Assembly: GCA_964389765.1 (NCBI GenBank)
Contig: CAYMES010000001.1
Location: 6,786-63,569 of the forward strand
Length of the DNA: 56,784 nucleotides
Source of the DNA: Candidatus Woesearchaeota archaeon
Lineage (GTDB): Archaea; Nanobdellota; Nanobdellia; Pacearchaeales; GW2011-AR1
Reading direction: 5' to 3'
Each line of letters opens with the position of its first letter. Position 1 is the stretch's first letter. Both the position numbers and the translations under genes were made by a program. The notes beneath the pieces were generated by a model. That model did no database searches and had not been told where the DNA came from. It worked only from the letters and a program-made list of their open reading frames with translations. Positions 1 to 25,640 of this stretch are shown here, piece by piece.

Positions 1-81
1 GAGTTATGATGAAGAAGATTTATTATGGAGTTATGATGAAGAAGATTTATTATGGAGTTATGATGAAGAAGATTTATTATG
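1..81 (+). repeat. Perfect 27-bp tandem repeat x3 (gagttatgatgaagaagatttattatg), in frame, encoding SYDEEDLLW x3; may continue upstream of the window
   Basis: Direct reading shows that units 1-27, 28-54 and 55-81 are identical. Confidence 0.95.
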
Positions 82-1543
82 GGATAAAGTGCATAAAGAT
101 TTTGATGATAAGGGAAAAGAATTAACTTTGGATGATTTTGATGAAGGAGATTATTATTGGGAAGTGGAATGTTATGATAACTCCTCAAACAATAATCGGA
201 AAGGATATGTTTTTGAAGTTAATTTTTCAGATAATGGAGGAAACAAGGATAATGGAGAAGGTAATGAAAACACTGTTAATCTAAATTCAGATGAAGATGA
301 AAACAACACTTATGAAAGAAAAGGGGAAGTAGAAAATCTTGTAGATTCTATAAATAGTTTTTTAGAAAAAGAAAAAACATTTGATGCTGAACAAAAAGAG
401 GCTCTAGAAGATCTTGATTTGGGAAAAAAACTTAATTTTTATAAAAAAAGGCTGCTTCAAATTGATCAGGATTTGAAACATAATATTAAATTTATTACAG
501 ATCAGGATTTGAAACAACAAAGAATAAAGGATATGAATGAAGAAATAGACGAAATAAATGGGAAAGTTCCAACAGATTTGCAGGTAAAAGAAAGCTATAG
601 TTTTGTTAAAAATAGTGTAGAAGGAGATTTAGAAGAAGTTATTAAAAATTATATGGAAGCTCAAAATACAGAAGTAAGTAAAAGAACAATTAGGAAAATA
701 ACTCAGGCTAATTTATTGCTTCAACAACATATTTCAATTAAAGCAGAAGTAAGGAAAGTTAAGATGACATATGAAAATAAAGAAAAAGAAATTACATTAA
801 TTAAAAAAGAAATAAATATTAAAAATAATTCTCATGAAAAAATCCTTGAAATAATTCCCAAGCAAATTGAAGAAAATGCAGATAATCTTGTTTTTTTACA
901 AGACGTGGAAGTAATTAAACAAGACCCTATTATTGAAATAAATTATAATGATCTTGAAAATGGAAAATTAGTTTATTATGTTGAAAAATTTGTTAATCTA
1001 AAAGATACTGAGAAAATTCAAACAATTTTATTTGATGAAAAATTAAAAAGTTCTGGAATAGGAATTACTGGTTTTTTTATATTTGAATTAGGAGAAGAAA
1101 GCCCTTTATATTATGCTCTTTTTGTAATTCTTCTTATAGGGCTTGTTTATTTATCTACTTTTATATTTCAAAAATTAAAGATAGGAAGATGGAAAAAAGA
1201 GCCAAATGTTGTTAGAAGTTTTGAGCTTGTTTCAAGCACAAATAGAGCAATAAAAGAAAAGGATTTGGAAAAAGCAAGGGAAGATTATCATAAATTAAAA
1301 GAAATATACCCTTTATTACCTCAAAACTGTAAAAACTTCTTTTATAAAAAAATTAATAAATTATTATTAGAAATAGATAAAAGAGATATTTTTAATCTTG
1401 TAAGAGAATATGAAGAAGCAAGAAGAGAAAAAAGAAAAGAAGATAAATTAAGAATTTATGAGGATATTAAAAAGATTTATAAAAGACTTCCTAAAAAATA
1501 TAGGGAGAAGGTTTATGAAAGAGTTATAAAAAGAGAGTTTTAA
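2..1543 (+). CDS. Hypothetical acidic, coiled-coil, single-pass membrane protein; 5' end cut by the window edge
   Basis: The frame of the listed ORF (89..1543) stays open back to nt 2 (SYDEEDLLW x3, then DKVHKDF). There is one hydrophobic helix (LYYALFVILLIGLVYLSTFIF) and a K/R/E-rich C-terminal tail. I recognise no family. Confidence 0.6.
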   Translation, partial: SYDEEDLLWSYDEEDLLWSYDEEDLLWDKVHKDFDDKGKELTLDDFDEGDYYWEVECYDNSSNNNRKGYVFEVNFSDNGGNKDNGEGNENTVNLNSDEDENNTYERKGEVENLVDSINSFLEKEKTFDAEQKEALEDLDLGKKLNFYKKRLLQIDQDLKHNIKFITDQDLKQQRIKDMNEEIDEINGKVPTDLQVKESYSFVKNSVEGDLEEVIKNYMEAQNTEVSKRTIRKITQANLLLQQHISIKAEVRKVKMTYENKEKEITLIKKEINIKNNSHEKILEIIPKQIEENADNLVFLQDVEVIKQDPIIEINYNDLENGKLVYYVEKFVNLKDTEKIQTILFDEKLKSSGIGITGFFIFELGEESPLYYALFVILLIGLVYLSTFIFQKLKIGRWKKEPNVVRSFELVSSTNRAIKEKDLEKAREDYHKLKEIYPLLPQNCKNFFYKKINKLLLEIDKRDIFNLVREYEEARREKRKEDKLRIYEDIKKIYKRLPKKYREKVYERVIKREF

Positions 1544-7833: not shown

Positions 7834-8088
7834 ATGGGAAATAAAATTTATGTTGGAAATTTGCCATATAGTGTTGACGATGGCCAACTTCAGAAAATGT
7901 TTTCTGAATTTGGAGAAATAAGTGAAGCAACCATGATAACTGACAAATTTTCAGGAAGATCAAAAGGCTTTGGTTTTGTTACTTTTGCAGATGAAGAATC
8001 TGCTAAAAAAGCTATTTCTGAGATGAATGAGAAAGAAATTGAAGGAAGAGCAATTAAAGTTGCAGAAGCTAGACCTCAAAGAGAATAA
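7834..8088 (+). CDS. Single-RRM RNA-binding protein (bacterial Rbp-like)
   Basis: RNP2 (IYVGNL) and RNP1 (KGFGFVTF) are present at canonical spacing in an 84-aa protein. Confidence 0.85.
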   Translation: MGNKIYVGNLPYSVDDGQLQKMFSEFGEISEATMITDKFSGRSKGFGFVTFADEESAKKAISEMNEKEIEGRAIKVAEARPQRE

Positions 8089-8115
8089 GTAAAAAAGGCT
8101 TGTAAAGAATAAGTA

Positions 8116-8997: not shown

Positions 8998-9291
8998 TCA
9001 TATAGTTGTAGGAATATGTACAATAAAAGGATATTTCTCAACTAATCCGGGATTTAAAGAAAATTCTACTAAATGAGTTATTAAATCTTTCCAAGATAAA
9101 GCAATAAGAAAAGAAAAAGCAGCAATAATTGCAGTTGCTGTATGTTGTTTAACTTGGGAACTAAAAAAATCAGTTTTAGAGATAAGATGTTTTGATAATC
9201 TATGATCTATGTGTCTTTCTATATGCTCTTGCTGATTTTTTGATAATTTTTTTGAGTTTTTTATTTTTTTGGATTTGTTTGTTTTCGGCAT
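8998..9291 (-). CDS. Small membrane protein, paralog 1 (K-rich N-terminus, AAFSFLIALSWKDLI helix); lacks the second helix of its paralogs
   Basis: Shares the motif A-x-x-A-x-(G/S)F-x-IA-x-SW-(K/R)-(D/N) with 9332..9568 and 9785..10039. It resembles DUF5654-type proteins, from memory and unverified. Confidence 0.55.
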   Translation of the reverse strand: MPKTNKSKKIKNSKKLSKNQQEHIERHIDHRLSKHLISKTDFFSSQVKQHTATAIIAAFSFLIALSWKDLITHLVEFSLNPGLVEKYPFIVHIPTTI

Positions 9292-9331
9292 TTTTTAGAT
9301 TCTTTTGGAAATTTTTTATTTTTTAGGATTT

Positions 9332-9568
9332 TTATTGTAAAACTTTGGAGTTAATTAATATTAAGATAACTCCTATAAAAGTTATTAAAATTGATGAGAT
9401 AAAACCTACTAAATGAATGTTTGTTAAAACAGATAATTGTAAAATTTTATTTCTTGTTAATTCAAAAATAAAATTTCTCCAACTAAAAGCAATTATAAAT
9501 CCTATTGCTGCTGAAATTGCCACTCTTAATTGTTTTTTAAGTTCTTTTTTGAATTTTTTTGCAACCAT
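9332..9568 (-). CDS. Small two-helix membrane protein, paralog 2
   Basis: Contains AISAAIGFIIAFSWRNFI followed by a C-terminal hydrophobic helix. Confidence 0.6.
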   Translation of the reverse strand: MVAKKFKKELKKQLRVAISAAIGFIIAFSWRNFIFELTRNKILQLSVLTNIHLVGFISSILITFIGVILILINSKVLQ

Positions 9569-9642
9569 TATTTATTTTTTATGATTTTTTGGTTTTTTGT
9601 TTATTTTTTTAGGATTTTTTGGATTTTTTTAGATTTTTATGA

Positions 9643-9689
9643 TTGCAGGAAGTTTTAGGTTTTGCTTAAAAGTTTTAACTTATTGTTTT
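9643..9689 (+). repeat. Copy C of the 47-nt intergenic core
   Basis: Direct reading. Flanked by further shared T-rich blocks; for example, GGAAATTTTTTATTTTTTAGGATTTT also occurs at about 9307-9331 and about 9753-9778. Confidence 0.9.
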
Positions 9690-9784
9690 TACTTATTATT
9701 TAGTTTTTTATTTTTTTGGTTTTTTAGATTTTTACTTAATTTTTTTGATTTTCTGGAAATTTTTTATTTTTTAGGATTTTTTGT

Positions 9785-10039
9785 TTATTTTTCTTTAATT
9801 TGTATTTTTGATGCAATCATTATTCCTAAAATTGCTATGATTGTTATTAAAATTGCAATTATTAATTTATAAAAATAAAGTTGATTAGATATTCCAAAAT
9901 TTTCTACAATTTTATTTAAAGATTCTGTAATAAAATCTCTCCAAGAAAGGGCAATTAAAAATCCTAAAGCAGCAACAATTGCTGTAATTGATTGTTTTTT
10001 AAACTCTTTTCTAAAATTTGAAATGTGTTTTTTAACCAT
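9785..10039 (-). CDS. Small two-helix membrane protein, paralog 3
   Basis: Contains AIVAALGFLIALSWRDFI followed by a C-terminal hydrophobic helix. Confidence 0.6.
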   Translation of the reverse strand: MVKKHISNFRKEFKKQSITAIVAALGFLIALSWRDFITESLNKIVENFGISNQLYFYKLIIAILITIIAILGIMIASKIQIKEK

Positions 10040-10117: not shown

Positions 10118-10189
10118 TTAGCAATATTTGCTAATTTTTTAACAAATATTTGTTAATTACGTTTAAAATTTCTTAGCAATATTTGCTAA
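10118..10189. promoter_or_regulatory. Three operator-like palindromes: TTAGCAA-TAT-TTGCTAA (10118-10134 and 10173-10189) flanking TTAACAAATATTTGTTAA (10139-10156)
   Basis: The inverted repeats were read directly and the arms are perfect. An extra half-site TTGCTAA lies at about 10193-10199. The cluster sits in the divergent intergenic region between the 10039(-) and 10394(+) starts. Confidence 0.6.
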
Positions 10190-10326: not shown

Positions 10327-10354
10327 GTTTAAACAGCTTTAAACAGTGTTTAAA
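10327..10354. promoter_or_regulatory. GTTTAAACAGC-TTTAAACA-G-TGTTTAAA element (17-bp perfect palindrome at 10338-10354) just upstream of a TATA-like tttaaaaata
   Basis: Palindrome read directly. About 24/27 nt recur inside the downstream CDS at 10639-10665. Confidence 0.5.
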
Positions 10355-10393: not shown

Positions 10394-11038
10394 ATGTTTG
10401 GATGGTTTAAGAAAAAAGCAGTAAAAGAAGATGTTGAAAAAATAGAAAAGGCTGTTCAAACAGGTTTCAACAACGTTAAACAAGATATATCGAATATCTC
10501 AGAGTGGATAAAACACCTTGATTCAAAAGATTCTGAGCAAGAAGATGAAATTTCAGAAATAAAAGAAGAAATATCGACGATAAAATATGAGCTTGGAGAA
10601 ATTAAAAATATGTTAGAAATTCTTGGAAATGATGGGTTGTTTAAACAGCGACAAACAGTGTTTAATAAACAAACAGCTGTTCAAGGTGTTCAAACAGCTG
10701 TTCAAACACCTGTTCAAACAGTAGAATTAGGCAATTTTTTGAATAATCTATCAGTTACAGAAAGAGCATTGGTGTGGGTATTGCTAAATTCAGATATGAA
10801 ACTAAGTTATGATGATCTTTCAGCAATGCTTGGAAAAGATAAAACTACTATTAGAGGCCAAATAAACAGTATAAAGCAGAAAAGTGAGAGTTTAATAAAA
10901 GAACAAATTGGCAAAAATAACAAAAAAAGATACTATATATCTGAAAAAATCAAGCAAACACTGTTAAAAAGCAGAAAAGTGAGAGTTAAAAACAAAAAGA
11001 AAAGCAAAAAAAGAGAAAGTATGGATGAGGAAGAATAG
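10394..11038 (+). CDS. Coiled-coil, repeat linker (QTAVQGVQTAVQTPVQTV), winged-helix DNA-binding protein
   Basis: The N-terminus is E/K/I-rich and heptad-like. The C-terminal segment TERALVWVLLNSDMKLSYDDLSAMLGKDKTTIRGQINSIK looks like a wHTH. The tail is basic. Confidence 0.6.
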   Translation: MFGWFKKKAVKEDVEKIEKAVQTGFNNVKQDISNISEWIKHLDSKDSEQEDEISEIKEEISTIKYELGEIKNMLEILGNDGLFKQRQTVFNKQTAVQGVQTAVQTPVQTVELGNFLNNLSVTERALVWVLLNSDMKLSYDDLSAMLGKDKTTIRGQINSIKQKSESLIKEQIGKNNKKRYYISEKIKQTLLKSRKVRVKNKKKSKKRESMDEEE

Positions 11039-11340
11039 AAAAAGTGAGGAAAATAGGTTTATTTGATGATTTTAAGGGTTAAAGTGAGGAAAAATAAGTA
11101 TTTTAATAAGTAAAAACAAAAAAATGAGAATACCTCTTTAAAAAGAGAGTGTAAAAGCAAAAAATATTGGAAAGAAAAATTTTAGCTTTTTAGAGGCTAA
11201 AGGGAGGAAAATTGAAAAAGAATGGGAAAAGGACTAGTTAGATGTATCCAACTTAATCGTTACACCGAAAAACCATCTTTGATATGAAACAATTTTAAAA
11301 AGATCAATAAAAGAGTGTAAAAAATTGAAAATTAAAGTTT

Positions 11341-12087
11341 TTAGACTCTGAAACCTTTAATTCCCCTTAATTCAATAATAGTGTCTAAAGTAGCTATTTT
11401 CTTTAATTCAGGGGAGATATGCAGGATTATTTTTTTATTATTAAGTTTTTGTTTGATTATAGGTATTCCTTTAATAATAAGCCTATTAACATAATCTCTT
11501 ATCGACGACTGGCTTAAATTAAGTTTTTTAGCTATTTCTTTATAATCTACTTCTTCAATATCTTGTTCTTCTAGTTGATAAATTGTTGAAAAAACAAGCA
11601 TTTCTTGACTAGTTATTTTTTTGAATTTGTTCCTTATATCTTTTTTAATATGGTCTAAAGAATCTAAAATTTCTGAAGCTTCTGATATTTGTGTTTGAAT
11701 TGGTTTTTGAATATTATTTTGGTTAAAATCTATCTGTCTGACTGTCTGTCTGTCTGTCTGTCTGTCTGTCGAAACCCCTCTATTTCCTGTGGAGATTATC
11801 AAATTTTGGTTTTTTAACCCCTCTATTTCCTGTGGATGTGTCGAAGTCGCAGGATGTGTCGAAGTTTTTTTAGGATGTGTCGAATTATGTGTCGAAGTGT
11901 TTAAATCAGAATTTTTGCTTATTTTTTGGTAATTTTCTAATTTTAATTGCATAATTTCATCATTTATCTGTTGCATAAATCCATTAATTTGGGAAATTTC
12001 TTGTTTTAACTCTTTTACTTGATTTCCTAAATTATCCATATCTTGTTTTATTTTAAAAAAAGCCTCTTTTATTTTTTCCTCTTTCAT
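11341..12087 (-). CDS. Coiled-coil, repeat linker (TSTHP x4, STDRQTDRQTVRQ), winged-helix DNA-binding protein
   Basis: Same architecture as 10394..11038. The wHTH-like segment is TSQEMLVFSTIYQLEEQDIEEVDYKEIAKKLNLSQSSIRDYVNRLIIKGI. Confidence 0.6.
   Translation of the reverse strand: MKEEKIKEAFFKIKQDMDNLGNQVKELKQEISQINGFMQQINDEIMQLKLENYQKISKNSDLNTSTHNSTHPKKTSTHPATSTHPQEIEGLKNQNLIISTGNRGVSTDRQTDRQTVRQIDFNQNNIQKPIQTQISEASEILDSLDHIKKDIRNKFKKITSQEMLVFSTIYQLEEQDIEEVDYKEIAKKLNLSQSSIRDYVNRLIIKGIPIIKQKLNNKKIILHISPELKKIATLDTIIELRGIKGFRV
11743..11770 (-). repeat. (GACA)7 perfect tetranucleotide microsatellite on the coding strand ((TGTC)7 on the + strand), inside CDS 11341..12087; 10 units if the imperfect units at 11731-11742 are included
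   Basis: Counted directly: TGTC units at 11743, 11747, 11751, 11755, 11759, 11763 and 11767. Confidence 0.95.
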
Positions 12088-12184
12088 TTTCTTATTAATA
12101 TAATATTTTATTTAAAGATTTGTTTATTCAAAAAATATGTTTTATTATATAAATGTTTAAATAAAAGTATCTTCTAAAAATTTT

Positions 12185-12763
12185 ATGAATGATGAGAATT
12201 TTGTGAAATTAGAAGATATTCCTCAAGAAATAGCTCCTCCAATTATTAGAGTAAGATACAGTCAAGGCCCTCCCTTATTTGTTGAAAAAGTAGAAGATCA
12301 GTGTGATTTTTATGCAACAGGGTTTTTTGGATTTTTTAATGCGAGCAATAAACACTTAAAGGGAAGATGTGATACATTTTACCATTATGTTATTTTAAGA
12401 AGTAACAGGCATAATAAAAACAGAACTCCTGAAAAAGATTTAAAAAATGTTAAGTTAGTAGAAATGGTTTTAAAAAGAGGTAAGCTTGAGCCCCAATTAA
12501 GGGTTTATTTATGGGCTAAAAAAGAAGCAAAGGTTCTTGCTGAAGAAATGGGTATTGAAATAGAAGATAATACAGAAATAGGAAAATACCTAAAAAATCG
12601 TTTTCCTTATATAAATTTTCCTTATAGGAAAATAAGTGATTTAGATGCTCGTGGACATAGAGAAGCAGGAGTTTTAAGAAGAAATTCGAAAAGACCTATA
12701 ATGGAATCATTAAATTTAGGTCCAAATTTTTTAAGAGAAATAGGTACTGGAAAACGAAGCTAG
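12185..12763 (+). CDS. Hypothetical protein
   Basis: 192-aa ORF. No family recognised. Confidence 0.45.
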   Translation: MNDENFVKLEDIPQEIAPPIIRVRYSQGPPLFVEKVEDQCDFYATGFFGFFNASNKHLKGRCDTFYHYVILRSNRHNKNRTPEKDLKNVKLVEMVLKRGKLEPQLRVYLWAKKEAKVLAEEMGIEIEDNTEIGKYLKNRFPYINFPYRKISDLDARGHREAGVLRRNSKRPIMESLNLGPNFLREIGTGKRS

Positions 12764-12977: not shown

Positions 12978-13244
12978 TTATTGATGTTGTTTATAAGCTT
13001 GATAAGCTTTGTTGGAGATTCTCCATCTTATTCTTCTACTAAAAGGGATTCCTTTTGAATTTTTTCTAATTGCTGCTACAAATCCTTTTTTTCTTAAATT
13101 AAATAATAGTTTTTTTACAAATTCTTCATCTCTTGCAATTTCTCTGGCTATTTGGGCAGTAAATAATGATTTTGGAAATTGTCTAAACAATAATGCAAGA
13201 ATCTGCTCTAAAATTTTTTGTTTTTTTTCTTCACTTATCCTCAT
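12978..13244 (-). CDS. Small winged-helix DNA-binding protein
   Basis: FTAQIAREIARDEEFVKKLLFNLRKKGFV is followed by a basic wing (RRIRWRISNKA). 88 aa. Confidence 0.55.
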   Translation of the reverse strand: MRISEEKKQKILEQILALLFRQFPKSLFTAQIAREIARDEEFVKKLLFNLRKKGFVAAIRKNSKGIPFSRRIRWRISNKAYQAYKQHQ

Positions 13245-15242: not shown

Positions 15243-17858
15243 ATGGATAAACAAAAATATAAAATTGCTAAAAAAAGAAATAAAAAAGAAATTAAACAAG
15301 AACTGGATCCTTTAGTTAAAGAGTGGTTTTTTTCAAGATTTAAAGATTTTTCTTTACCTCAGCTATATGGAGTTATGCCTATTTATGAAAGAAAGAATAT
15401 TCTTATAAGTGCTCCAACTGGAGGAACAAAAACTCTTACTGCTTTTTTATCCATTTTAAATTATTTAGTTAATTTAGCAAGAAAAAATGAATTAGAAGAT
15501 AAGATATATGCAGTTTATACTTCTCCTTTAAAGGCTTTAAGTAATGATATCCATGTTAATCTAGTTAGACCTTTAGAAGAAATCCAAGAAATTGCTAAAA
15601 ATAAAAAAATAAAACTTCAAAAAATAAAGGTAGCATTAAGAACTGGAGATACTCCTACAAAAGAAAGAAGTAAAATGTTAAAAAATCCTCCACATATTCT
15701 TGTCACAACTCCTGAAACTTTGGCAATTGTTTTAACAACAAAAAAATTTATAGAAAAATTAAAAGGAACTGAATTTATTATTGTAGATGAAATCCATGCT
15801 TTAGCTAATAAAAGGGGGACTTATCTTTCTTTAACTATTGAAAGATTAGAAGAAGCAAGCATAATGCCTTTAGTTAGAATAGGGCTTTCTGCAACTGTGG
15901 CTCCTTTAGAAGAAATTGCTAATTTTTTAGTTGGGCAATCAGGTGAAGAAAGAGATAAGAGGGATTGCATTATTGCTGATGTGCAATTTACAAAAAAAAC
16001 TGATATAAAGGTTTTAACACCTGTAACTGATCTTATTGAAACTACAAGTTTTAATTTGCATTCCTCTCTTTATAAACTAATAGATAATCTTATACAAAAA
16101 CATAAGACTACTTTAATTTTTACTAATACGAGAAGTGCTACTGAAAGAGTAGTTCATCATCTTCAAGAGATGTTTCCAAAAAAATATCTTGAGAATATTG
16201 GAGCCCATCATTCTTCTTTAAGTAAAAAACACAGATTTCAGATAGAAGAAAAATTAAGGAAAGGAGAGTTAAAAGTAGCAGTTACTTCTACAAGTTTAGA
16301 ATTAGGAATTGATATTGGTTATATTGATCTTGTAATTTTATTAGGAAGTCCAAAATCAGTAGCAAGAGCACTTCAAAGAATAGGTAGGGCTGGGCATAAA
16401 CTGCATGAAGTTGCTAAAGGAAGATTTATGGTTTTAGATAGAGATGATTTAATAGAGTGCTGTGTATTATCCAAACAAGCAATAGAAAAAAAGATTGATA
16501 GAGTAAGAATTCCAACAAATTGTCTGGATGTTTTAAGTCAACAGATTTATGGTATGGCAATTTATAAGATCTGGGAAGAGGAAGAGATGTTTAAACTTAT
16601 TAAAAAAAGTTATTGTTATAAAAATCTATCTAGACAAGATTTTTTAAGTGTTTTAAGTTATCTTGCAGGAGAATATGAATTAGAAGCAAGAAATGTTTAT
16701 GCTAAAATATGGTATGATAGAAATGAAAAAAAAATTGGAAAAAGGGGAAGATTAGCTAGGGTTATTTATATGACCAATATAGGGACAATTCCAGAAGAGT
16801 CTTTTGTTAATGTAGTCGTAGGTAGAGGGGATGGAAGAGGAGAAAAAGTAGGAGTTATAGATGAATCTTTTTTAGAAAAATTAAAACCAAGAGATGTTTT
16901 TGTTTTGGGAGGGAGGAGATATGAGTTTTTATATAGTAAAGGAATGAAAGCTTATGTTAATACAAGTGTTCAAAGACCTCCTACAATTCCTTCATGGTTT
17001 TCAGAACAGCTTCCTTTAAGTTTTGATTCTGCATTAGCTATTGGAAGATTTAGAAGACTTTTAGAACAGAAATTTGAAAGTAAGAAAAATGCAAAGGAAA
17101 TAAAGGAGTTTATTAAAAAGCATTTATATTGTACTGATAAAGTTACATTAGCCATCTATAATTATTTTTATGAACAATATGGTTATATTAAAAAAATTCC
17201 AAATGAAAAAAATATACTCATTGAATTTTATAAAGATAAAAAAAATCATGTTATTTTTCATACTCTTTATGGGAGAAGAGTTAACGATGCTTTATCAAGA
17301 GCTATAGCTTATCTTGTTGCAAGAACAGGAGGGAGGGATATTGAAATAGGGATAAATGATAATGGTTTTTTTCTTTCAGGTGAAAAATTAAAAATTGATA
17401 AAGCTTTGAAATTCCTGAATAAAGAAAATTTAGAAGAAGTTTTAGAAGAAGCTATTAAAAAAACAGAAGTTATGAAAAGAAGATTCAGGCACTGTGCTAC
17501 TCGTTCTTTAATGATATTGAGAAATTATAAAGGGAGGAGCAAAACAGTTGGAAAGCAACAGATGAAATCTCATTTTTTATTAGGGAGTGTAAATAAAATT
17601 TCTCAAGATTTTCCAATATTAAAAGAAGCAAGAAGAGAGGTTTTAGAAGATTTAATGGATATAAATAATACGAAACTAGTTTTAGAATGGATACAGGAAG
17701 GAAAAGTGAAGTTAGATAAAATCCATACAAATATTCCAAGTCCCTTTGCTTTAAATTTAATAATGCAGGGTTCTGCAGATTTATTAAAAATAGAAGATAA
17801 AATTAATTTTTTAAAAAGGATGCATGAAAAACATCTTAAAAAAATTGGAAAGGAATAA
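15243..17858 (+). CDS. lhr: Lhr-type ATP-dependent DEAD/DEAH-box helicase
   Basis: Motifs APTGGTKT (Walker A), VDEIH (motif II), LSAT, TSSLELGIDIG and QRIGRAGH, plus a long Lhr-type C-terminal extension. The ATG at 15243 is preferred over the TTG at 15237. Confidence 0.8.
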   Translation: MDKQKYKIAKKRNKKEIKQELDPLVKEWFFSRFKDFSLPQLYGVMPIYERKNILISAPTGGTKTLTAFLSILNYLVNLARKNELEDKIYAVYTSPLKALSNDIHVNLVRPLEEIQEIAKNKKIKLQKIKVALRTGDTPTKERSKMLKNPPHILVTTPETLAIVLTTKKFIEKLKGTEFIIVDEIHALANKRGTYLSLTIERLEEASIMPLVRIGLSATVAPLEEIANFLVGQSGEERDKRDCIIADVQFTKKTDIKVLTPVTDLIETTSFNLHSSLYKLIDNLIQKHKTTLIFTNTRSATERVVHHLQEMFPKKYLENIGAHHSSLSKKHRFQIEEKLRKGELKVAVTSTSLELGIDIGYIDLVILLGSPKSVARALQRIGRAGHKLHEVAKGRFMVLDRDDLIECCVLSKQAIEKKIDRVRIPTNCLDVLSQQIYGMAIYKIWEEEEMFKLIKKSYCYKNLSRQDFLSVLSYLAGEYELEARNVYAKIWYDRNEKKIGKRGRLARVIYMTNIGTIPEESFVNVVVGRGDGRGEKVGVIDESFLEKLKPRDVFVLGGRRYEFLYSKGMKAYVNTSVQRPPTIPSWFSEQLPLSFDSALAIGRFRRLLEQKFESKKNAKEIKEFIKKHLYCTDKVTLAIYNYFYEQYGYIKKIPNEKNILIEFYKDKKNHVIFHTLYGRRVNDALSRAIAYLVARTGGRDIEIGINDNGFFLSGEKLKIDKALKFLNKENLEEVLEEAIKKTEVMKRRFRHCATRSLMILRNYKGRSKTVGKQQMKSHFLLGSVNKISQDFPILKEARREVLEDLMDINNTKLVLEWIQEGKVKLDKIHTNIPSPFALNLIMQGSADLLKIEDKINFLKRMHEKHLKKIGKE

Positions 17859-22437: not shown

Positions 22438-22499
22438 TATTTAAAGGAGATTTAAATAATTTATAAACTTTTCTATAAATTTTTATTAAGATGAAGTGA

Positions 22500-22840
22500 T
22501 AAGACCTACCCCTTTATTTCTAATGGGAAAGATTTATAAATGAAAAACAGGCTTTTATTATTTTATTATTTTATTTATAAGTTTTATTATATTATATTAT
22601 ATTATATTATATTATATATAATCAAAAATATTTATTATATTATATTGTTTTTTATTTCTATAAGAAATGTAGGTGTATTTATTTTTTTGTGATTACAAAA
22701 GATTATAAAGATCTATTTTTTGATTACGAGAGTTAGGATGGGGGCTAAAAATTTTTGCATAAGAAATACAGGTGTGTATGTATATGATGAATTATAAGAA
22801 AATTTATAAAAGGAGAGTTTTTTTAACTAATGCTTTATTT
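22500..22840. other. Candidate replication origin (oriC) immediately upstream of orc1/cdc6
   Basis: An AT-only tract with (ATTAT)6 is bracketed by a C4 string (22509-22512) and a G5 string (22740-22744) in opposite orientation. Direct repeats TAAGAAAT(GT/AC)AGGTGT lie at 22661-22676 and 22760-22775. TTTT(G)TGATTAC(A/G)A(A/G)AG is repeated, with its GATTAC cores at 22691 and 22722. Adjacency to orc1 and PolD matches the known Pyrococcus arrangement. Confidence 0.55.
22586..22615. repeat. (ATTAT)6 pentanucleotide microsatellite; a further 2.6 units at 22634-22646
   Basis: Counted directly. Confidence 0.95.
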
Positions 22841-22857
22841 TGAGAGGTGTTAAAAAG

Positions 22858-24057
22858 ATGGCTGTTAAATTAGATAAAATATTTGATTCTGCAACAAAGA
22901 ACAATTTATTTAAAAATAAATTTGTTTTACAAACTAATTATACTCCTGAAACAATTCCTCATAGGGATGATGAGATAGAACAAATAGCTTCTATTTTAGC
23001 TCCTTGTTTAAGAGGGGATAAGACTAGTAATTTATTTGTTTATGGAAAAACAGGGACAGGGAAAACTCTTTCAATACAATATGTAAAAGATGAATTATTA
23101 AAAAGAGCTAAAAGTAATAATTCTTCTCTTAGGATAGAGTATTTAAATTGTAAGTTAAGAAAAGTTACAGATACAGAATATAGAATTTTAGCTGAGTTAA
23201 TTAAAAAATTAGGAGGGAGTGTGCCTGCTACTGGTTTGCCTACTGACCAAGTTTATGGAAAGTTTATAGATTTAATTGAAGAAAAAAACCAGTTATTAGT
23301 TTTGGTTTTAGATGAAGTTGATCAAGCAGTTAAAAAAATTTCAGATAATTTCCTTTATAATTTAACAAGGCTTAATTCAGAACTTGGAAAAGCACAAATA
23401 AGTTTAGTTGGGATTAGTAATGACTTAAGGTTTTTAGATAATCTTGATCCTAGAGTAAGAAGCAGTTTAAGTGAGGAAGAACTTATTTTTTCCCCATATA
23501 ATGCTATTCAATTACAAGATATTTTAAAAGAAAGAGCACAACAAGCTTTTCATAGAAATTCAATAGATGAAGGGGTTATTGAGAAATGTGCTGCTTATGC
23601 TGCAAGAGAACATGGAGATGCTAGAAGAGCTTTGGATTTATTGAGGGTGGCTGGAGAAATGGCTGCAAGAGAAGGAAATAATAAAATAAAATTAAAACAT
23701 ATAGATATTGCAAATAATAAAATAGAAAGAGATAAAATATTGGATGTAGTAGAATCAGAACCAAGACAGTTTCAACTAGTTTTGTTGTCAATACTTAATT
23801 TAACAAAAGATGGAGAGAAGGTTTTTACTGGAGATGTGTATAGTGAGTATCAGAATATATGCAATAAAATAAAGATGGATATTTTAACTCAGAGAAGAGT
23901 TTCAAGCATAATTAGTGAATTTGATATGTTGGGGCTGATTAATGCAAGGAATATTTCTAGAGGAAGTTATGGAAAAACAAGAGAAATAAGGTCTGCTATT
24001 CCTAAAGAAATATTTAAACAAGCTAAAAATATATTGGAAAATTCTTTAGCTTTGTAA
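22858..24057 (+). CDS. orc1: Orc1/Cdc6 replication initiator
   Basis: Contains the HR(D/E)xE motif region (IPHRDDEIEQI), Walker A (YGKTGTGKT), Walker B (LVLDEVD), sensor-2 (GDARRALDLLR) and a C-terminal winged helix. The ATG at 22858 is preceded by GAGGTG. Confidence 0.9.
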   Translation: MAVKLDKIFDSATKNNLFKNKFVLQTNYTPETIPHRDDEIEQIASILAPCLRGDKTSNLFVYGKTGTGKTLSIQYVKDELLKRAKSNNSSLRIEYLNCKLRKVTDTEYRILAELIKKLGGSVPATGLPTDQVYGKFIDLIEEKNQLLVLVLDEVDQAVKKISDNFLYNLTRLNSELGKAQISLVGISNDLRFLDNLDPRVRSSLSEEELIFSPYNAIQLQDILKERAQQAFHRNSIDEGVIEKCAAYAAREHGDARRALDLLRVAGEMAAREGNNKIKLKHIDIANNKIERDKILDVVESEPRQFQLVLLSILNLTKDGEKVFTGDVYSEYQNICNKIKMDILTQRRVSSIISEFDMLGLINARNISRGSYGKTREIRSAIPKEIFKQAKNILENSLAL

Positions 24058-24074: not shown

Positions 24075-25640
24075 ATGCAACAAGAAATTTTAAAATTTTG
24101 TATGGAAAAAGGCTTTCTTTTAGATAAAGAAATGTTAGATTTTTTTAATCAGTTAGATGATAAAAAAACAGCTGACAGAATCCTTGAAAAGATAAGGCAG
24201 GTTTCAAGTAAAAGATTAATAACAAAATCAGTATTTAACCAAAATATAAATCATATTAAGGAAGTTTTATATTCTTTGGAAGATGATAAAAAGAAAGTTG
24301 TAGAGAGATTTTTTATTAATCTTAATTTAAGTGTGGAAGTTAGAAAAGAAAAATATGTTGATAACACAGGATCTGAAAAAGCAAAAGAAGAAAAACAAGA
24401 AGATGAAGAAAATTCATCAAATAATCTTAAAATAATAAGTCCCAGTATAGTTCCTGCTAAAAAATTAAAAGTAGAGGATTTTGTTAAAAATTTTAGGAAC
24501 AGGTATAAAGAGATGAAAAGTGTTTTACAAGAAAGAAGAGAGTTACAAAATTTAACTTCTATTTCTAACATAAATAGGAGAAAACAGAATGTTTCGGTTA
24601 TAAGTATTGTTACTAATAAAAGAACTACAAAAAATAAAAATATATTATTAGAAATAGAAGATTTAACTGGAAAAAGTAGGGCTTTAATTAACCAGAATAA
24701 ACCAGAATTATTTGAAAAAGGAAAGGATATTTTACTAGATGAAATTATTGGTTTAAGGTGTAGTGGAAGTGGGGAGATGCTTTTTGTTAATGATATTGTT
24801 TATCCAGATGCTGCAATTCATGAAAAAAAGAAAGCAGATAAAGAAACATATGCCTTGTTTACTTCAGATTTGCATATAGGAAGTAATTTTTTTTTACAAG
24901 ACAATTTTGAAAAATTTACAGATTGGTTAAATGGGGAACTAAATTATAAAGATCAAGTTAAAAAAATTAAATATCTTTTTATTACAGGAGATGGTGTTGA
25001 TGGTGTGGGAATTTTTCCAGGACAAGAAGAATTCTTAGATATAAAAGATGTTAAAGAACAATATAAAAAACTAGCTGAATTATTAAAAAAAATAAGAAAA
25101 GATGTAAGAATAATTATATGTCCGGGACAGCATGATGCTGTCAGGGTTGCTGAGCCCCAACCAATTATAGACAAATCTTATGCCCCAGAAATTCATGAGA
25201 TGGAAAATGTAAACCTTGTTACAAATCCTGCTTATGTTTCATTAACTGAAGGATTTAATATTTTAATGTATCATGGAGCAAGTTTCCATGGAATTATTAG
25301 GGACATGGAGAGATTAAGATTAAATGGAGGACATGATAAACCTGCAAATGTAGTTAAAGAATTATTAAAAAGAAGACATCTTGCACCTTCACATGCATCT
25401 ACTACTTATATTCCTGGGGAAAGAGATCCTTTATTAATAAGAAAAATTCCAGATATAATAACTACAGGAGATTTACATAAACCAGATATTGAGAATTATA
25501 ATAATATAATGATAATTTCTAATTCTTGTTGGCAAGCAAGAACTCCTTTTGAAGAAAAAGTAGGAAATCATCCAGATCCATGTAAGGTTTCCATGTTAAA
25601 TTTAAAAACAAGAGAACTTAAGATTCTTGATTTTTCTTAA
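24075..25640 (+). CDS. polB: DNA polymerase II (PolD) small subunit DP1
   Basis: The C-terminal phosphoesterase domain has SDLHIGS, ITGDGVDG, PGQHDA, YHGAS and TGDLH. The OB region is upstream, and the N-terminus is DP1-like. Confidence 0.85.
   Translation: MQQEILKFCMEKGFLLDKEMLDFFNQLDDKKTADRILEKIRQVSSKRLITKSVFNQNINHIKEVLYSLEDDKKKVVERFFINLNLSVEVRKEKYVDNTGSEKAKEEKQEDEENSSNNLKIISPSIVPAKKLKVEDFVKNFRNRYKEMKSVLQERRELQNLTSISNINRRKQNVSVISIVTNKRTTKNKNILLEIEDLTGKSRALINQNKPELFEKGKDILLDEIIGLRCSGSGEMLFVNDIVYPDAAIHEKKKADKETYALFTSDLHIGSNFFLQDNFEKFTDWLNGELNYKDQVKKIKYLFITGDGVDGVGIFPGQEEFLDIKDVKEQYKKLAELLKKIRKDVRIIICPGQHDAVRVAEPQPIIDKSYAPEIHEMENVNLVTNPAYVSLTEGFNILMYHGASFHGIIRDMERLRLNGGHDKPANVVKELLKRRHLAPSHASTTYIPGERDPLLIRKIPDIITTGDLHKPDIENYNNIMIISNSCWQARTPFEEKVGNHPDPCKVSMLNLKTRELKILDFS

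Follow-up and report, generated by a model that had tools for sequence, protein, structure and literature searches.

Predicted origin recognition boxes and phased repeat arrays within a convergent pair of winged-helix genes near cdc6 in a Woesearchaeota genome

Introduction

Why should the same nucleotides be kept twice within a gene when the two copies are read in different frames and encode different peptides? The question is raised by two convergent genes of Candidatus Woesearchaeota archaeon (assembly GCA_964389765.1, contig CAYMES010000001.1). The window, that is, the whole stretch of DNA that was analyzed, comprises 56,784 nt and corresponds to positions 6,786-63,569 of the forward strand of the contig; coordinates below are those of the window. 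Gene 1 (10394..11038, plus strand) is an ORF of 214 aa, and gene 2 (11341..12087, minus strand) is an ORF of 248 aa. The spacer between them (11039..11340) has a GC content of 25% and carries an array of a short motif, motif M.

Results and Discussion

Predicted products of the convergent genes

The AlphaFold model of the gene 1 product has a long N-terminal helix (residues 2-77), a disordered center (78-111), a winged helix-turn-helix (112-192), and a basic disordered tail. That of the gene 2 product has an N-terminal helix (3-61), a disordered center (61-125), and a helix plus a MarR-like winged helix (130-241), and it matches MarR family structures in Foldseek. The central regions of both proteins have pLDDT values below 50. 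Searches of Pfam, NCBIfam, and PDB sequences gave winged-helix and coiled-coil matches, and family searches gave weak Lrs14/Sta1-like matches for gene 1. Because all of the sequence matches are below curated cut-offs, no family name can be assigned to either protein; the winged-helix fold is backed by AlphaFold for both and by Foldseek for gene 2.

Homologue searches recovered more than 1800 DPANN homologues of gene 1 and more than 2300 homologues of gene 2, and the two genes converge at every one of 39 loci, where 106-1139 nt separate them. The initial annotation had described each product as a coiled coil, a low-complexity linker, and a C-terminal winged helix. The models agree with a coiled coil, a central region, and a C-terminal winged helix, but the low-complexity linker does not stand, as conservation in both protein families peaks in the central region. 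In one distant Woesearchaeota homologue this region is missing entirely.

Repeats read in two frames

The repeats that had drawn attention to the locus were all recovered at the positions and in the frames originally given. The 16-mer CAGAAAAGTGAGAGTT occurs at 10877 and 10972, 95 nt apart; its in-frame reading is Q-K-S-E-S and its out-of-register reading (S)-R-K-V-R-V. The 21-mer AACCCCTCTATTTCCTGTGGA occurs at 11773 and 11816, 43 nt apart, with the minus-strand readings STGNRGV and (H)PQEIEGL. The 13-mer AAAGTGAGGAAAA occurs at 11041 and 11081, and a copy that differs by one mismatch starts at 11199. When k-mer frequencies were compared with expectation, the 21-mer (two matches in the window at ≤3 mismatches, 0.00 expected) and the 16-mer (two matches, 0.11 expected) were above chance within the window. 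Alone in the window, the 13-mer is not significant (three matches, 0.9 expected; 5 of 100 shuffles gave at least as many); it is highly significant across genomes. Further repeats, beyond those first noted, are (TCTG)x10.5 at 11729-11770, four TTCGACACAT units at 11836-11896 (minus strand), and CTGTTYAAACAG units at 10452-10463 and 10637-10721.

Selection on the nucleotide sequence

Orthologues of gene 2 (n = 56, 45-60% protein identity) were found by a metagenome scan using an alignment. Their collection used a peptide pattern that overlaps one of the 21-mers, the one designated ORB-2 below, and the presence of that site at the protein level is therefore partly ascertained, whereas its codon choice is not. 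Because the orthologues are phylogenetically related, the counts given here are not independent events.

In the central block of gene 2, orthologue pairs that have the same residue share its codon in 91% of cases (0.91), compared with 48-55% in the coiled coil and winged helix. Most of the conserved central residues are encoded by one codon in ~90-100% of orthologues, and the codons kept include otherwise rare ones. The flanking domains are saturated at synonymous sites, and the central sites are nearly invariant. Over the two 21-mers, synonymous identity is 0.93-0.95 against ~0.5 in the flanks. The central block of gene 1 behaves similarly: it contains an array of about seven 12-bp near-palindromes CTGTTYAAACAG (10637..10721, plus strand), which encodes the predicted disordered segment FKQRQTVFNKQTAVQGVQTAVQTPVQT and has a synonymous codon identity of 0.87, against 0.55-0.66 in the gene 1 flanks. 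The rare codon GTG at V89 of gene 1 is kept in 33 of 35 orthologues. An isolated unit of the same type, CTGTTCAAACAG (10452..10463, plus strand), encodes a conserved A-V-Q-T motif near the N-terminus of gene 1; its codons GTT (36/36), CAA (35/35), and ACA (37/37) are fixed among orthologues, with a pairwise synonymous identity of 0.92.

Synonymous sites are thus constrained in the central blocks of both genes, and the suggestion that these regulator genes contain elements conserved as nucleotides is borne out. The central peptides are conserved as amino acids too and may also have a function at the protein level.

Two predicted origin recognition boxes in gene 2

The two 21-mers of gene 2 are classified as origin recognition boxes (ORBs) by consensus match. 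ORB-2, CTCCACAGGAAATAGAGGGGTT (11773..11794, minus strand; read S-T-G-N-R-G-V), and ORB-1, ATCCACAGGAAATAGAGGGGTT (11816..11837, minus strand; read (H)-P-Q-E-I-E-G-L), each differ at one position from the ORB pattern drawn from published sites. Published ORBs include the pan-archaeal consensus CTTCCAGTGGAAACGAAAGGGGT as well as GTTCCACTGGAAACAG-AGGGGT and GTTCCAGTGGAAATGA-AGGGGT (PMC4153887, Table 2), and the orthologue consensus sequences of the two gene 2 sites are GTTCCACAGGAAATAGAGGGGTTA and TTTCCAYAGGAAATGAAGGGGTT. The sites share with published ORBs the TTCCA-NN-GGAAA core and the G-string and are identical to them at ~19-20 of 22 positions. At ≤2 mismatches, the pattern TTCCANNGGAAATNNAGGGGT matches only positions 11774, 11817, and 22508 in the 56.8 kb, against 0.01 matches expected. 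In every genome examined, no other site matches the ORB better than the gene 2 pair.

ORB-2 is present with ≤2 mismatches in all 56 orthologues, 23 of them perfect, and its codons TCC, GGA, and GGG are used in 55, 56, and 56 of the 56, respectively; TCC makes up 13% of Ser codons. ORB-1, at a 43-nt offset upstream of ORB-2, is found with ≤2 mismatches in 42 of 56 orthologues and has been lost in about six. The offset is taken as fixed, because the protein alignment is ungapped between the sites in every orthologue. Variation among orthologues falls mainly at degenerate ORB positions, and both readings of the 21-mer are kept across the family with identical nucleotides. The ORBs lie ~250-310 nt inside the coding sequence in all orthologues. 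They are direct repeats in a block of 42% GC that is not bordered by an AT-rich unwinding tract, and a search within 4 mismatches gave no conserved inverted partner. The genome encodes Orc1/Cdc6, and we infer from these matches that Orc1/Cdc6 would bind the gene 2 ORBs.

Tandem units on either side of the ORBs

An (ACAG)n tract (11729..11770, minus strand; (TCTG)x10.5 on the plus strand) adjoins the G-rich end of ORB-2 and encodes TDRQTDRQT. Its codons ACA, GAC, AGA, and CAG are used in 49-56 of the 56 orthologues. The longest perfect run comprises 2-13 units in 54 of 56 orthologues, and the tract is absent in the other two. On the other side of the ORB pair, four units of a 12-nt type containing TTCGACACAT (11834..11898, minus strand) encode (T)STHP repeats, resemble the left half of an ORB, and have a synonymous identity of 0.87. 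These units were considered as mini-ORBs and rejected, as they lack the invariant GAA core given for mini-ORBs in the Pyrococcus report (PMC1904270).

Unit number changes in 12-nt steps between relatives (the close strain L002 has one unit fewer), and perfect (ACAG)n runs reach up to 13 units in some orthologues and are missing in others. Both observations are what would be expected if the two centers were ordinary low-complexity linkers made by slippage, conserved as protein or not at all, with the frame-shifted copies being accidental. We give this explanation hardly any credence. Synonymous sites are nearly invariant in spite of saturated flanking domains, rare codons are fixed, and both readings of the 21-mer are retained family-wide with the same nucleotides; this codon conservation refutes the linker explanation unless it is itself an alignment artefact. 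A role of the repeats as slippage substrates, also suggested at first, finds no support as a switch: frameshifted (ACAG)n alleles were found in 0 of 66 loci, and the window does not differ in tract length from the close strains L001 and L002. Phase variation at the tract was rejected on the lack of frameshifted alleles.

A helically phased array of motif M

The AAAGTGAG repeats belong to a one-orientation array of motif M, approximately AAAAA-n-GGAAAAGTGAGAGTTAG, which extends from the 3' end of gene 1 through the spacer. Two copies correspond to the 16-mers. The second (10972..10987, plus strand) lies in the sequence encoding the C-terminal tail (SRKVRV). There, V196 is encoded by GTG in 42 of 49 orthologues, although GTG makes up 21% of Val codons, and an equivalent of this copy is present in another genome (L085). 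The first (10877..10892, plus strand) falls within the part of gene 1 that encodes the winged helix (KQKSES). At S164, 33 of 36 orthologues have AGT, but synonymous identity at this copy (0.61) is that of the background, and the first 16-mer, which had been taken as conserved at the nucleotide level, is under no clear constraint; it is a weak or lineage-variable member of the array. Two copies of AAAGTGAGGAAAA (11041..11053 and 11081..11093, both plus strand) lie in the spacer. The AAGTGAG cores at 10882, 10977, 11042, and 11082 are 95, 65, and 40 nt apart.

In 37 spacers motif M occurs 104 times in the forward and 0 times in the reverse direction (6.1 per kb against a background of 0.33 per kb), with one to seven copies in 34 of the 37, all in the gene 1 sense orientation. 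The spacings cluster at 42, 53, 63, 74, 84, 95, 105, 115, 126, 136, and 147 bp and show a period of 10.5 bp (Rayleigh R = 0.75, p ~3e-15); random placement of the motif gave R ≤0.40 in 2000 trials. Because the spacings are multiples of ~10.5 bp, the sites lie on one face of double-stranded DNA. The comparison with iteron-like binding sites made in the initial annotation fits this unidirectional, helically phased array.

The sense orientation of all motif M copies could also be read as that of 3'-UTR elements, and the conserved nucleotides might act in RNA, as mRNA structure, as sites for RNA-binding proteins, or as embedded small RNAs. The palindromes of gene 1 give a modest RNA folding signal (z = -2.0). 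We regard an RNA role as very unlikely, since a 10.5-bp period in the spacing reflects the geometry of the DNA helix and not that of RNA, and since the 21-mers match a known double-stranded-DNA site. No folding signal was found in the central region of gene 2 (z = -0.08), and Rfam searches at gathering and permissive thresholds returned nothing meaningful. A structured RNA in the central block of gene 2 was rejected on the lack of a folding signal.

Motif M might be a degenerate ORB, but we make no such claim: compared by eye, it agrees with the ORBs at only ~10-14 of 16-19 positions, and its context is AT-rich. No described site matches motif M, the 12-nt units, the (ACAG)n tract, or the palindromes. 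The near-palindromes are, judging by their form, the kind of site that a dimeric helix-turn-helix protein would bind. Candidate binders of motif M and of the palindromes are the gene 1 and gene 2 proteins themselves or the winged-helix protein encoded by a neighboring 88-aa ORF (12978-13244); these assignments are guesses.

The cdc6-adjacent origin and the conserved neighborhood

An origin-like region of canonical layout (22441..22839) lies 10.7 kb away from the gene pair. It contains a (TATTA)n tract of 3% GC (22553..22655) flanked by inverted ORB-like sites at 22508-22528 (minus strand), 22656-22676 (plus strand), and 22755-22775 (plus strand). It is followed by orc1/cdc6 (22840..24057, plus strand; Pfam Cdc6_C 1.8e-25, Cdc6_lid 3.9e-25, and AAA domains) and then by dp1, the gene of the PolD small subunit (24075-25640; DNA_pol_E_B 6.1e-19). 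GC skew rises monotonically over the window and gives no indication of where an origin lies.

The convergent pair lies 4-11 kb from the cdc6 and PolD genes in six of seven genomes examined; the distance from cdc6 to the pair, 10.7 kb in the window, is 3.9-8.5 kb in five other genomes. The order cdc6, origin, PRC-barrel gene, 88-90-aa winged-helix gene, gene 2, gene 1 is found in five distant genomes, and an Lhr helicase gene lies between in four of these five and in the window. In the three of these genomes that were scanned at the DNA level (L085-L087), ORBs are present at both places, in gene 2 and at the cdc6-adjacent origin. Our literature search found no relevant paper on characterized DPANN replication origins.

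This setting bears on the proposal that the locus is what remains of a replication module from a plasmid or virus, or else a contingency locus subject to phase variation. Iteron-like repeats beside genes of DNA-binding proteins and a tetranucleotide repeat within a coding sequence would suit such an origin, and mobile and defense genes are abundant beyond gene 1 in other genomes. The synteny with cdc6, the PolD genes, and Lhr is nevertheless chromosomal and conserved in distant genomes, homologues number in the thousands, and the (ACAG)n tract is in frame and, in the close strains, of equal length as described above. A scan of 2.9 million viral contigs gave no match to the ORB-plus-(ACAG)n pattern and only two isolated matches to motif M, with the genes absent. 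A virus or plasmid origin was rejected on these scans and on the synteny, and both forms of the proposal, remnant and variable locus, now seem exceedingly improbable.

Might the gene pair itself be a second working origin (oriC2), at which Orc1/Cdc6 on the gene 2 ORBs loads MCM at the AT-rich spacer or at a 97-bp tract of 9% GC upstream of gene 2? The gene 2 sites are the best ORB matches per genome examined, other phased repeats form dense arrays close by, the ORBs have their TTCC ends turned toward the 9%-GC tract (12088-12184), and a mini-ORB-like TTCCTCAAGAAAT lies past that tract on the opposite strand (12219-12231). An AT-rich tract flanked by inverted ORBs, however, occurs at 22508-22775 and not at gene 2. 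The gene 2 ORBs are unlike a working origin because they are direct, lie in a 42%-GC block, and lack an inverted partner or an AT-rich unwinding tract. No initiator gene is adjacent to the pair, the GC content of the spacer is 25% compared with 3% for the origin tract beside cdc6, and distant genomes lack the 192-aa ORF in which the mini-ORB-like site lies. A second origin at this locus is therefore improbable. What is found at gene 2 is a set of ORBs that lies outside the unwinding-tract set, within the origin neighborhood, and is conserved in related genomes, as would be expected of an accessory cluster.

A proposed role for the embedded sites

We consider it probable, on the conservation and matches described above, that the repeats are protein-binding sites on double-stranded DNA, overprinted by two convergent paralogous coiled-coil/winged-helix genes in an origin-proximal block. 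The ORB pair in gene 2 would provide Orc1/Cdc6 recognition sites, 43 bp apart and in direct orientation, bordered on one side by the 12-nt units that resemble the left half of an ORB and on the other by the (ACAG)n tract. The copies of motif M lie whole helical turns apart, as expected for cooperative binding on one face of the helix. What selection maintains would be the sites in the DNA and the helical distances between them (43, 40, 65, and 95 bp), and the codon phase of each copy would be arbitrary for that reason; copies would fall in different frames because the spacing of sites follows the DNA helix and not the codons. The encoded peptides would be a disordered linker, conserved only through conservation of the DNA. 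Most likely, the locus would be an accessory cluster of initiator sites that, through titration or looping, modulates how the cdc6-adjacent origin fires, a role that has been put forward for accessory ORB clusters already known.

Parallels for such a cluster exist, and the view that no described system has this layout has to be given up, since the 21-mer is a canonical archaeal ORB and ORB clusters within a coding gene have been described for Pyrococcus dp1. There, a cluster of ORBs and mini-ORBs lies inside dp1 throughout the Thermococcales and is bound by Cdc6 in vivo and in vitro in Pyrococcus (PMC1904270). Both are accessory ORB clusters in a protein-coding gene of the origin neighborhood; the host gene here encodes a coiled-coil/winged-helix regulator and not PolD, and it is more distant from the origin and on its opposite side. 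Synonymous freezing, dual-frame reading, and (ACAG)n and 12-nt arrays are not mentioned in the part of the report available (PMC1904270). More generally, the sites here differ from the usual archaeal ORBs in being intragenic, translated in two frames, and 4-11 kb from the initiator gene, and in being direct rather than inverted and not flanking an AT-rich unwinding tract.

The model adopted here for function is oriC2D of Haloarcula hispanica, an intergenic region of 722 bp that directly follows a cdc6 gene, holds 11 ORBs, and lowers origin activity, probably by titrating Cdc6E (PMC3936714). Both are separate clusters of initiator sites near an origin; the cluster here has two ORBs, within a gene and several kb away, and is known from sequence. 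The motif M array resembles plasmid iterons and centromere-like arrays in its direct repeats of one orientation and helical register beside genes of DNA-binding proteins, but it is chromosomal, its spacing varies by whole turns where theirs is fixed and tandem, and no Rep or Par protein accompanies it. In Bacillus subtilis, spo0J (parB) contains a single 16-bp parS inside the gene itself, near the origin, and its binding protein is proven. That case is likewise one of a DNA-binding protein whose site lies within its own coding sequence near an origin; here the sites form arrays, and self-binding is hypothetical.

Orc1-type proteins act as transcription regulators in some archaea, and the position of the ORBs ~250-310 nt into the coding sequence in all orthologues is compatible with a mainly regulatory purpose, in which Orc1/Cdc6 bound in the middle of gene 2 would act as an operator or roadblock and control its transcription, for example with the cell cycle. 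One report describes Orc1-2 as a DNA-damage regulator (PMC9738581). We hold this alternative to be unlikely: it leaves the 12-nt units, the (ACAG)n tract, and the motif M array unexplained, and nothing in the sequence separates an operator from titration or looping.

An accessory cluster could be part of something larger. The gene pair and its embedded sites might constitute an undescribed origin-associated nucleoprotein hub of DPANN archaea, in which the paralogous proteins bind the arrays in their own coding sequences and spacer and, together with Orc1/Cdc6 at the intragenic ORBs, control initiation or origin segregation. We offer this only as a tentative possibility. The (ACAG)n tract beside the G-rich end of ORB-2 could then serve an initiator filament as a periodic track, by analogy with the DnaA-trio elements that adjoin DnaA boxes in bacteria.

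If the proposed accessory cluster is real, the locus gives a sequence-level handle on a DPANN origin, with a canonical cdc6-adjacent origin and a deeply conserved cluster of accessory initiator sites a few kb away. It would also be a natural case of dual coding, in which DNA sites freeze synonymous positions and yield a protein segment that is conserved yet disordered, and it warns annotators that strong conservation of a disordered linker can mean a function of the DNA rather than of the protein. The binding hypotheses are directly testable with recombinant proteins from these uncultivated organisms.

Conserved elements around gene 1

Two smaller elements accompany the arrays. Upstream of gene 1, TTTAAACAG repeats (10327..10353, plus strand) resemble half-sites of the intragenic palindromes; they are conserved in L001 and diverged in L002. 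In the spacer, the block AACTTAATCGTTACACCGAAAAAC (11252..11275) is invariant in the window and in both of these strains, and its core TTCGGTGTAACGAA is present in ~13 of the 37 spacers.

Gene pair and encoded proteins

Gene 1 (10394-11038, plus strand, a 214-aa ORF) and gene 2 (11341-12087, minus strand, a 248-aa ORF) are convergent and lie in a window of 26% GC. AlphaFold predicts the same architecture for both proteins. In the gene 1 product, residues 2-77 form a helix, 78-111 are disordered and 112-192 form a winged helix; in that of gene 2, a helix (3-61) and a stretch with pLDDT <50 (61-125) precede a further helix and a winged helix (130-241). Foldseek matches to the gene 2 model are MarR-type structures. 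The two proteins are probably old paralogues, since they show weak similarity to each other (E = 1e-3) in the coiled coil and in the winged helix. Both families are large in DPANN archaea, with >1800 homologues of gene 1 and >2300 of gene 2 (E ≤ 1e-3), and their source names include Pacearchaeota, Woesearchaeota and Nanoarchaeota. A gene 1 homologue was found in 59 of the fetched loci, and the pair is convergent in 39/39 loci that allowed both ORFs to be delimited.

The repeat-bearing middle of each gene (the central block) had been labeled a low-complexity linker in the initial annotation, but it is the best-conserved part of both families. The family-wide peptide is ...STHPxTSTHxSTxPQEI[EG]GLKxxNLxxS[TI]GNxG[VA][SP]TDRQTDRQT... 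in gene 2 and ...FKQRQTVFNKQTAVQxVQTxVQTxVQ... in gene 1. Because these stretches are conserved, PQEIEGL and STGNxGV, the two readings of the 21-mer in gene 2, are family-wide peptides.

Repeats within the window

All repeats listed in the initial annotation are present at the positions and in the frames reported. The 21-mer (11773 and 11816) occurs at two positions only, even at 3 mismatches, with 0.00 expected. The 16-mer (10877 and 10972) has two exact copies, with 0.11 matches expected when up to 2 mismatches are allowed, and AAAGTGAGGAAAA alone shows no significant excess within the window. Further repeats, unlisted until now, are a (TCTG)x10.5 tract (11729-11770), a set of four TTCGACACAT units (11836-11896) and CTGTTYAAACAG units in two places (10452-10463 and 10637-10721). 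Every motif class is confined to the gene-pair locus within the 56.8-kb window.

Origin recognition boxes in gene 2

The sense-strand consensus of gene 2 orthologues reads GTTCCACAGGAAATAGAGGGGTTA, followed by TTTCCAYAGGAAATGAAGGGGTT 43 nt downstream. Published archaeal origin recognition boxes (ORBs; PMC4153887, Table 2) include the pan-archaeal consensus CTTCCAGTGGAAACGAAAGGGGT, as well as GTTCCACTGGAAACAG-AGGGGT and GTTCCAGTGGAAATGA-AGGGGT. [quoted passage not shown] The search pattern derived from published ORBs, TTCCANNGGAAATNNAGGGGT, allowing up to 2 mismatches, has three matches in the window versus 0.01 expected. These are both gene 2 sites, ORB-1 (11816-11837, minus) and ORB-2 (11773-11794, minus), and 22508-22528. 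By consensus match, then, the gene 2 21-mers are ORBs, and Orc1/Cdc6 is predicted to bind them.

ORB-2 has ≤2 mismatches in 56/56 orthologues and is perfect in 23, and ORB-1 has ≤2 mismatches in 42/56 and is lost in about 6. Orthologues differ mostly at the two N positions and in the short spacer preceding the G-string, which are the degenerate positions of ORBs. Identity of the two copies at 21/21 positions is limited to some lineages; the close relatives L001 and L002 read GAA where the window reads AGA.

Conservation of synonymous sites

Codons were threaded on protein alignments of 56 distinct orthologues, drawn from close relatives and from 80 metagenomic loci whose gene 2 orthologues share 45-59% identity. 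The metagenomic set was fetched by a peptide pattern overlapping ORB-2, which could not bias codon choice. At positions 70-119 of gene 2 most conserved residues use one codon, rare codons included, in nearly all orthologues. S99 is TCC in 55/56 (TCC makes up 13% of Ser codons), G104 is GGG and D108 is GAC in 56/56, and several Thr positions are ACA in 54-56 of 56, in counts from orthologues that are related by phylogeny. The fraction of same-residue orthologue pairs that also share the codon is 0.91 in the gene 2 central block (0.93 in ORB-1 and 0.95 in ORB-2), 0.55 in its coiled coil and 0.48 in its winged-helix half. It is 0.87 in the gene 1 central block and 0.55-0.66 in the gene 1 flanks, so the conservation that the initial annotation had placed at the nucleotide level is borne out for both central blocks. 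V89 of gene 1 keeps the rare codon GTG in 33/35 orthologues, preserving a TGTTT half-site. A three-way DNA alignment of the window and close relatives, judged by eye, gives the same pattern. In a distant Woesearchaeota homologue the coiled coil is joined straight to the winged helix, without a central block. The central blocks are strongly conserved, are predicted to be disordered and are dispensable in this distant relative; together, these points indicate that the selected object there is DNA.

Reading frames and the (ACAG)n tract

The ORB spacing of 43 bp, about four helical turns, is taken to apply to every orthologue, the alignment being gap-free between the sites. Site positions are probably set by DNA geometry. 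Spacing in steps of 10.5 bp does not run in multiples of 3, so the codon phase of each copy is arbitrary and the peptides follow from it. Such spacing accounts for the same DNA being read in different frames without recoding or slippage. The repeats had also been proposed as slippage substrates. The (ACAG)n tract encodes the same T-D-R-Q repeat in all three frames, and both alternative frames meet stops just downstream. Frameshifted alleles were found in 0/66 assembled loci, and tract length is equal in three close strains, so the tract does not behave as a phase-variation switch, and slippage serving as a switch is not supported.

Motif M array

The AAAGTGAG repeats are members of a helically phased array at the 3' end of gene 1 and in the spacer between the genes (motif M). 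Its AAGTGAG core occurs in one to seven copies in 34/37 distinct spacers, every copy being on the sense strand of gene 1 (104 forward, 0 reverse; 6.1/kb in spacers versus 0.33/kb in all loci), with a logo of AAAAA-n-GG-AAAAGTGAG-AGTTA. Gaps between neighboring copies fall in clusters at 42, 53, 63, 74, 84, 95, 105, 115, 126, 136 and 147 bp, that is, at whole helical turns. The Rayleigh R at a 10.5-bp period is 0.75 (p about 3e-15; 59 gaps, 28 loci), compared with ≤0.33 for unrelated A-rich 6-mers and ≤0.40 for random placement (2000 trials). Such a period reflects the geometry of double-stranded DNA and points to proteins binding cooperatively along one helix face. Action of the conserved nucleotides at the RNA level is disfavored, as helical phasing is unexpected of RNA elements, the folding z-score of the gene 2 block is -0.08 and there are no Rfam matches.

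Array members in the window comprise both 16-mers and the previously listed repeats at 11041 and 11081, with four cores at 10882, 10977, 11042 and 11082 (gaps of 95, 65 and 40 bp). The copy at 10972, in the gene 1 tail, seems to be a true, conserved part of the array: V196 within it is GTG in 42/49 orthologues versus a 21% background, and the distant genome L085 has an equivalent copy. The copy at 10877, within the winged helix, has a synonymous identity of 0.61, equal to background, and is regarded as a weak or lineage-variable member. A spacer block at 11252-11275, AACTTAATCGTTACACCGAAAAAC, is invariant among three close relatives; its core on the other strand, TTCGGTGTAACGAA, is found again in about 13/37 spacers, ~70-100 nt downstream of gene 2.

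We infer that at least one local winged-helix protein binds motif M and the 12-bp near-palindromes. A dimeric helix-turn-helix binder would suit these sites because they are palindromic, and the long coiled coils of the pair's proteins could bridge sites.

Position relative to the cdc6 origin

An Orc1/Cdc6 gene lies at 22840-24057 on the plus strand (Cdc6_C 1.8e-25, Cdc6_lid, AAA), followed by the PolD small subunit gene dp1 (24075-25640) and a 1600-aa ORF, presumed dp2 (26321-31123), an order resembling that of Thermococcales. Directly upstream of cdc6, at 22441-22839, ORB-like sites in inverted orientation at 22508-22528 (minus), 22656-22676 (plus) and 22755-22775 (plus) lie on either side of a 3%-GC (TATTA)n tract (22553-22655); in sequence this is a textbook layout for an archaeal origin. 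In the three distant genomes scanned, as in the window, this region has two or three inverted ORB-like sites. In the window and in each of the three the gene 2 ORB pair gives the closest consensus matches and shares its orientation with the same-side ORB of the origin.

The pair's origin-proximal position is conserved. The order in five distant genomes is DP1, Cdc6, origin, PRC-barrel gene, 88-90-aa winged-helix gene, gene 2, gene 1, with DP2 beyond DP1 in two; the remaining loci end within DP1 or Cdc6. An Lhr helicase gene intervenes in 4/5 of them and in the window, and a ~550-aa gene in 4/5, with a 183-aa gene there in the fifth. The distance from cdc6 to the pair is 3.9-8.5 kb in these genomes and 10.7 kb in the window. 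In a sixth genome (L091), a conjugation-like element (TraC, TrbC) has been inserted beyond Lhr. The initial annotation had suggested a plasmid or virus-like remnant, a source that chromosomal synteny and viral-contig scans count against and that is disfavored.

The pair seems to be an edge marker of a conserved origin block. Its side away from cdc6 differs among genomes (L085-L087, L090, L091, L002), and the regions beyond gene 1 hold many restriction-modification, DndB, Fic, HEPN, Cas4 and resolvase/recombinase genes. The Lhr sense strand carries an ORB-like site with 3 mismatches (window 17089-17109, plus; L085 6002-6022, minus) at an equivalent position in the two genomes, about 1.83-1.85 kb into the gene, which could be a coincidence from a conserved peptide. 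Inteins are present in Cdc6 (Intein_splicing and LAGLIDADG; L087 1-1547) and in the PolD large subunit (L090 1-2761).

Role of the locus

The locus is possibly a second origin, but both ORBs are direct repeats and no unwinding tract is adjacent, so we do not file it as one. An accessory ORB cluster fits better. Comparable clusters are one inside the Pyrococcus dp1 gene, bound by Cdc6 according to that study (PMC1904270), and an ORB-rich region of Haloarcula hispanica that restrains oriC2, probably via Cdc6E titration (PMC3936714). Alternatively, Orc1 bound at the gene 2 ORBs may act as a roadblock to transcription of gene 2.

ORBs, and accessory clusters of them within coding sequence, have been described before. 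What appears to be new is the host genes, the two-frame translation of an ORB pair throughout a large DPANN family, the freezing of synonymous sites, the accompanying (ACAG)n tract, 12-nt units and palindromic arrays, and the phased motif M array. No publication linking DPANN lineages with ORBs was found in a literature of incomplete coverage.

Other features near the pair

A 9%-GC tract of 97 bp lies directly upstream of gene 2 (within 12088-12231). Beyond it, a mini-ORB-like TTCCTCAAGAAAT at 12219-12231 (plus), inverted relative to the gene 2 ORBs, encodes IPQEI in a 192-aa ORF that is not conserved in distant genomes. The perfect palindrome TTAGCAATATTTGCTAA, at 10118-10134 and 10173-10189 in the intergenic region from which a DUF5654 gene and gene 1 diverge, has three copies in the closest relative (L001, 5911-5982) and is absent from the other 88 loci; it looks like a lineage-specific operator. 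Three tandem small DUF5654 membrane-protein genes occupy the minus strand of 8998-10039, and the plus strand there has long imperfect T-rich tracts of 9-10-nt period (e.g. 9233-9333, 9545-9644, 9695-9792). Near the locus, L001 encodes an 84-aa protein (7854-8108) with an RRM_1 RNA-recognition motif, a domain uncommon in archaea. A perfect 27-nt tandem repeat, GAGTTATGATGAAGAAGATTTATTATG, is present in three copies at the very start of the window (1-82).
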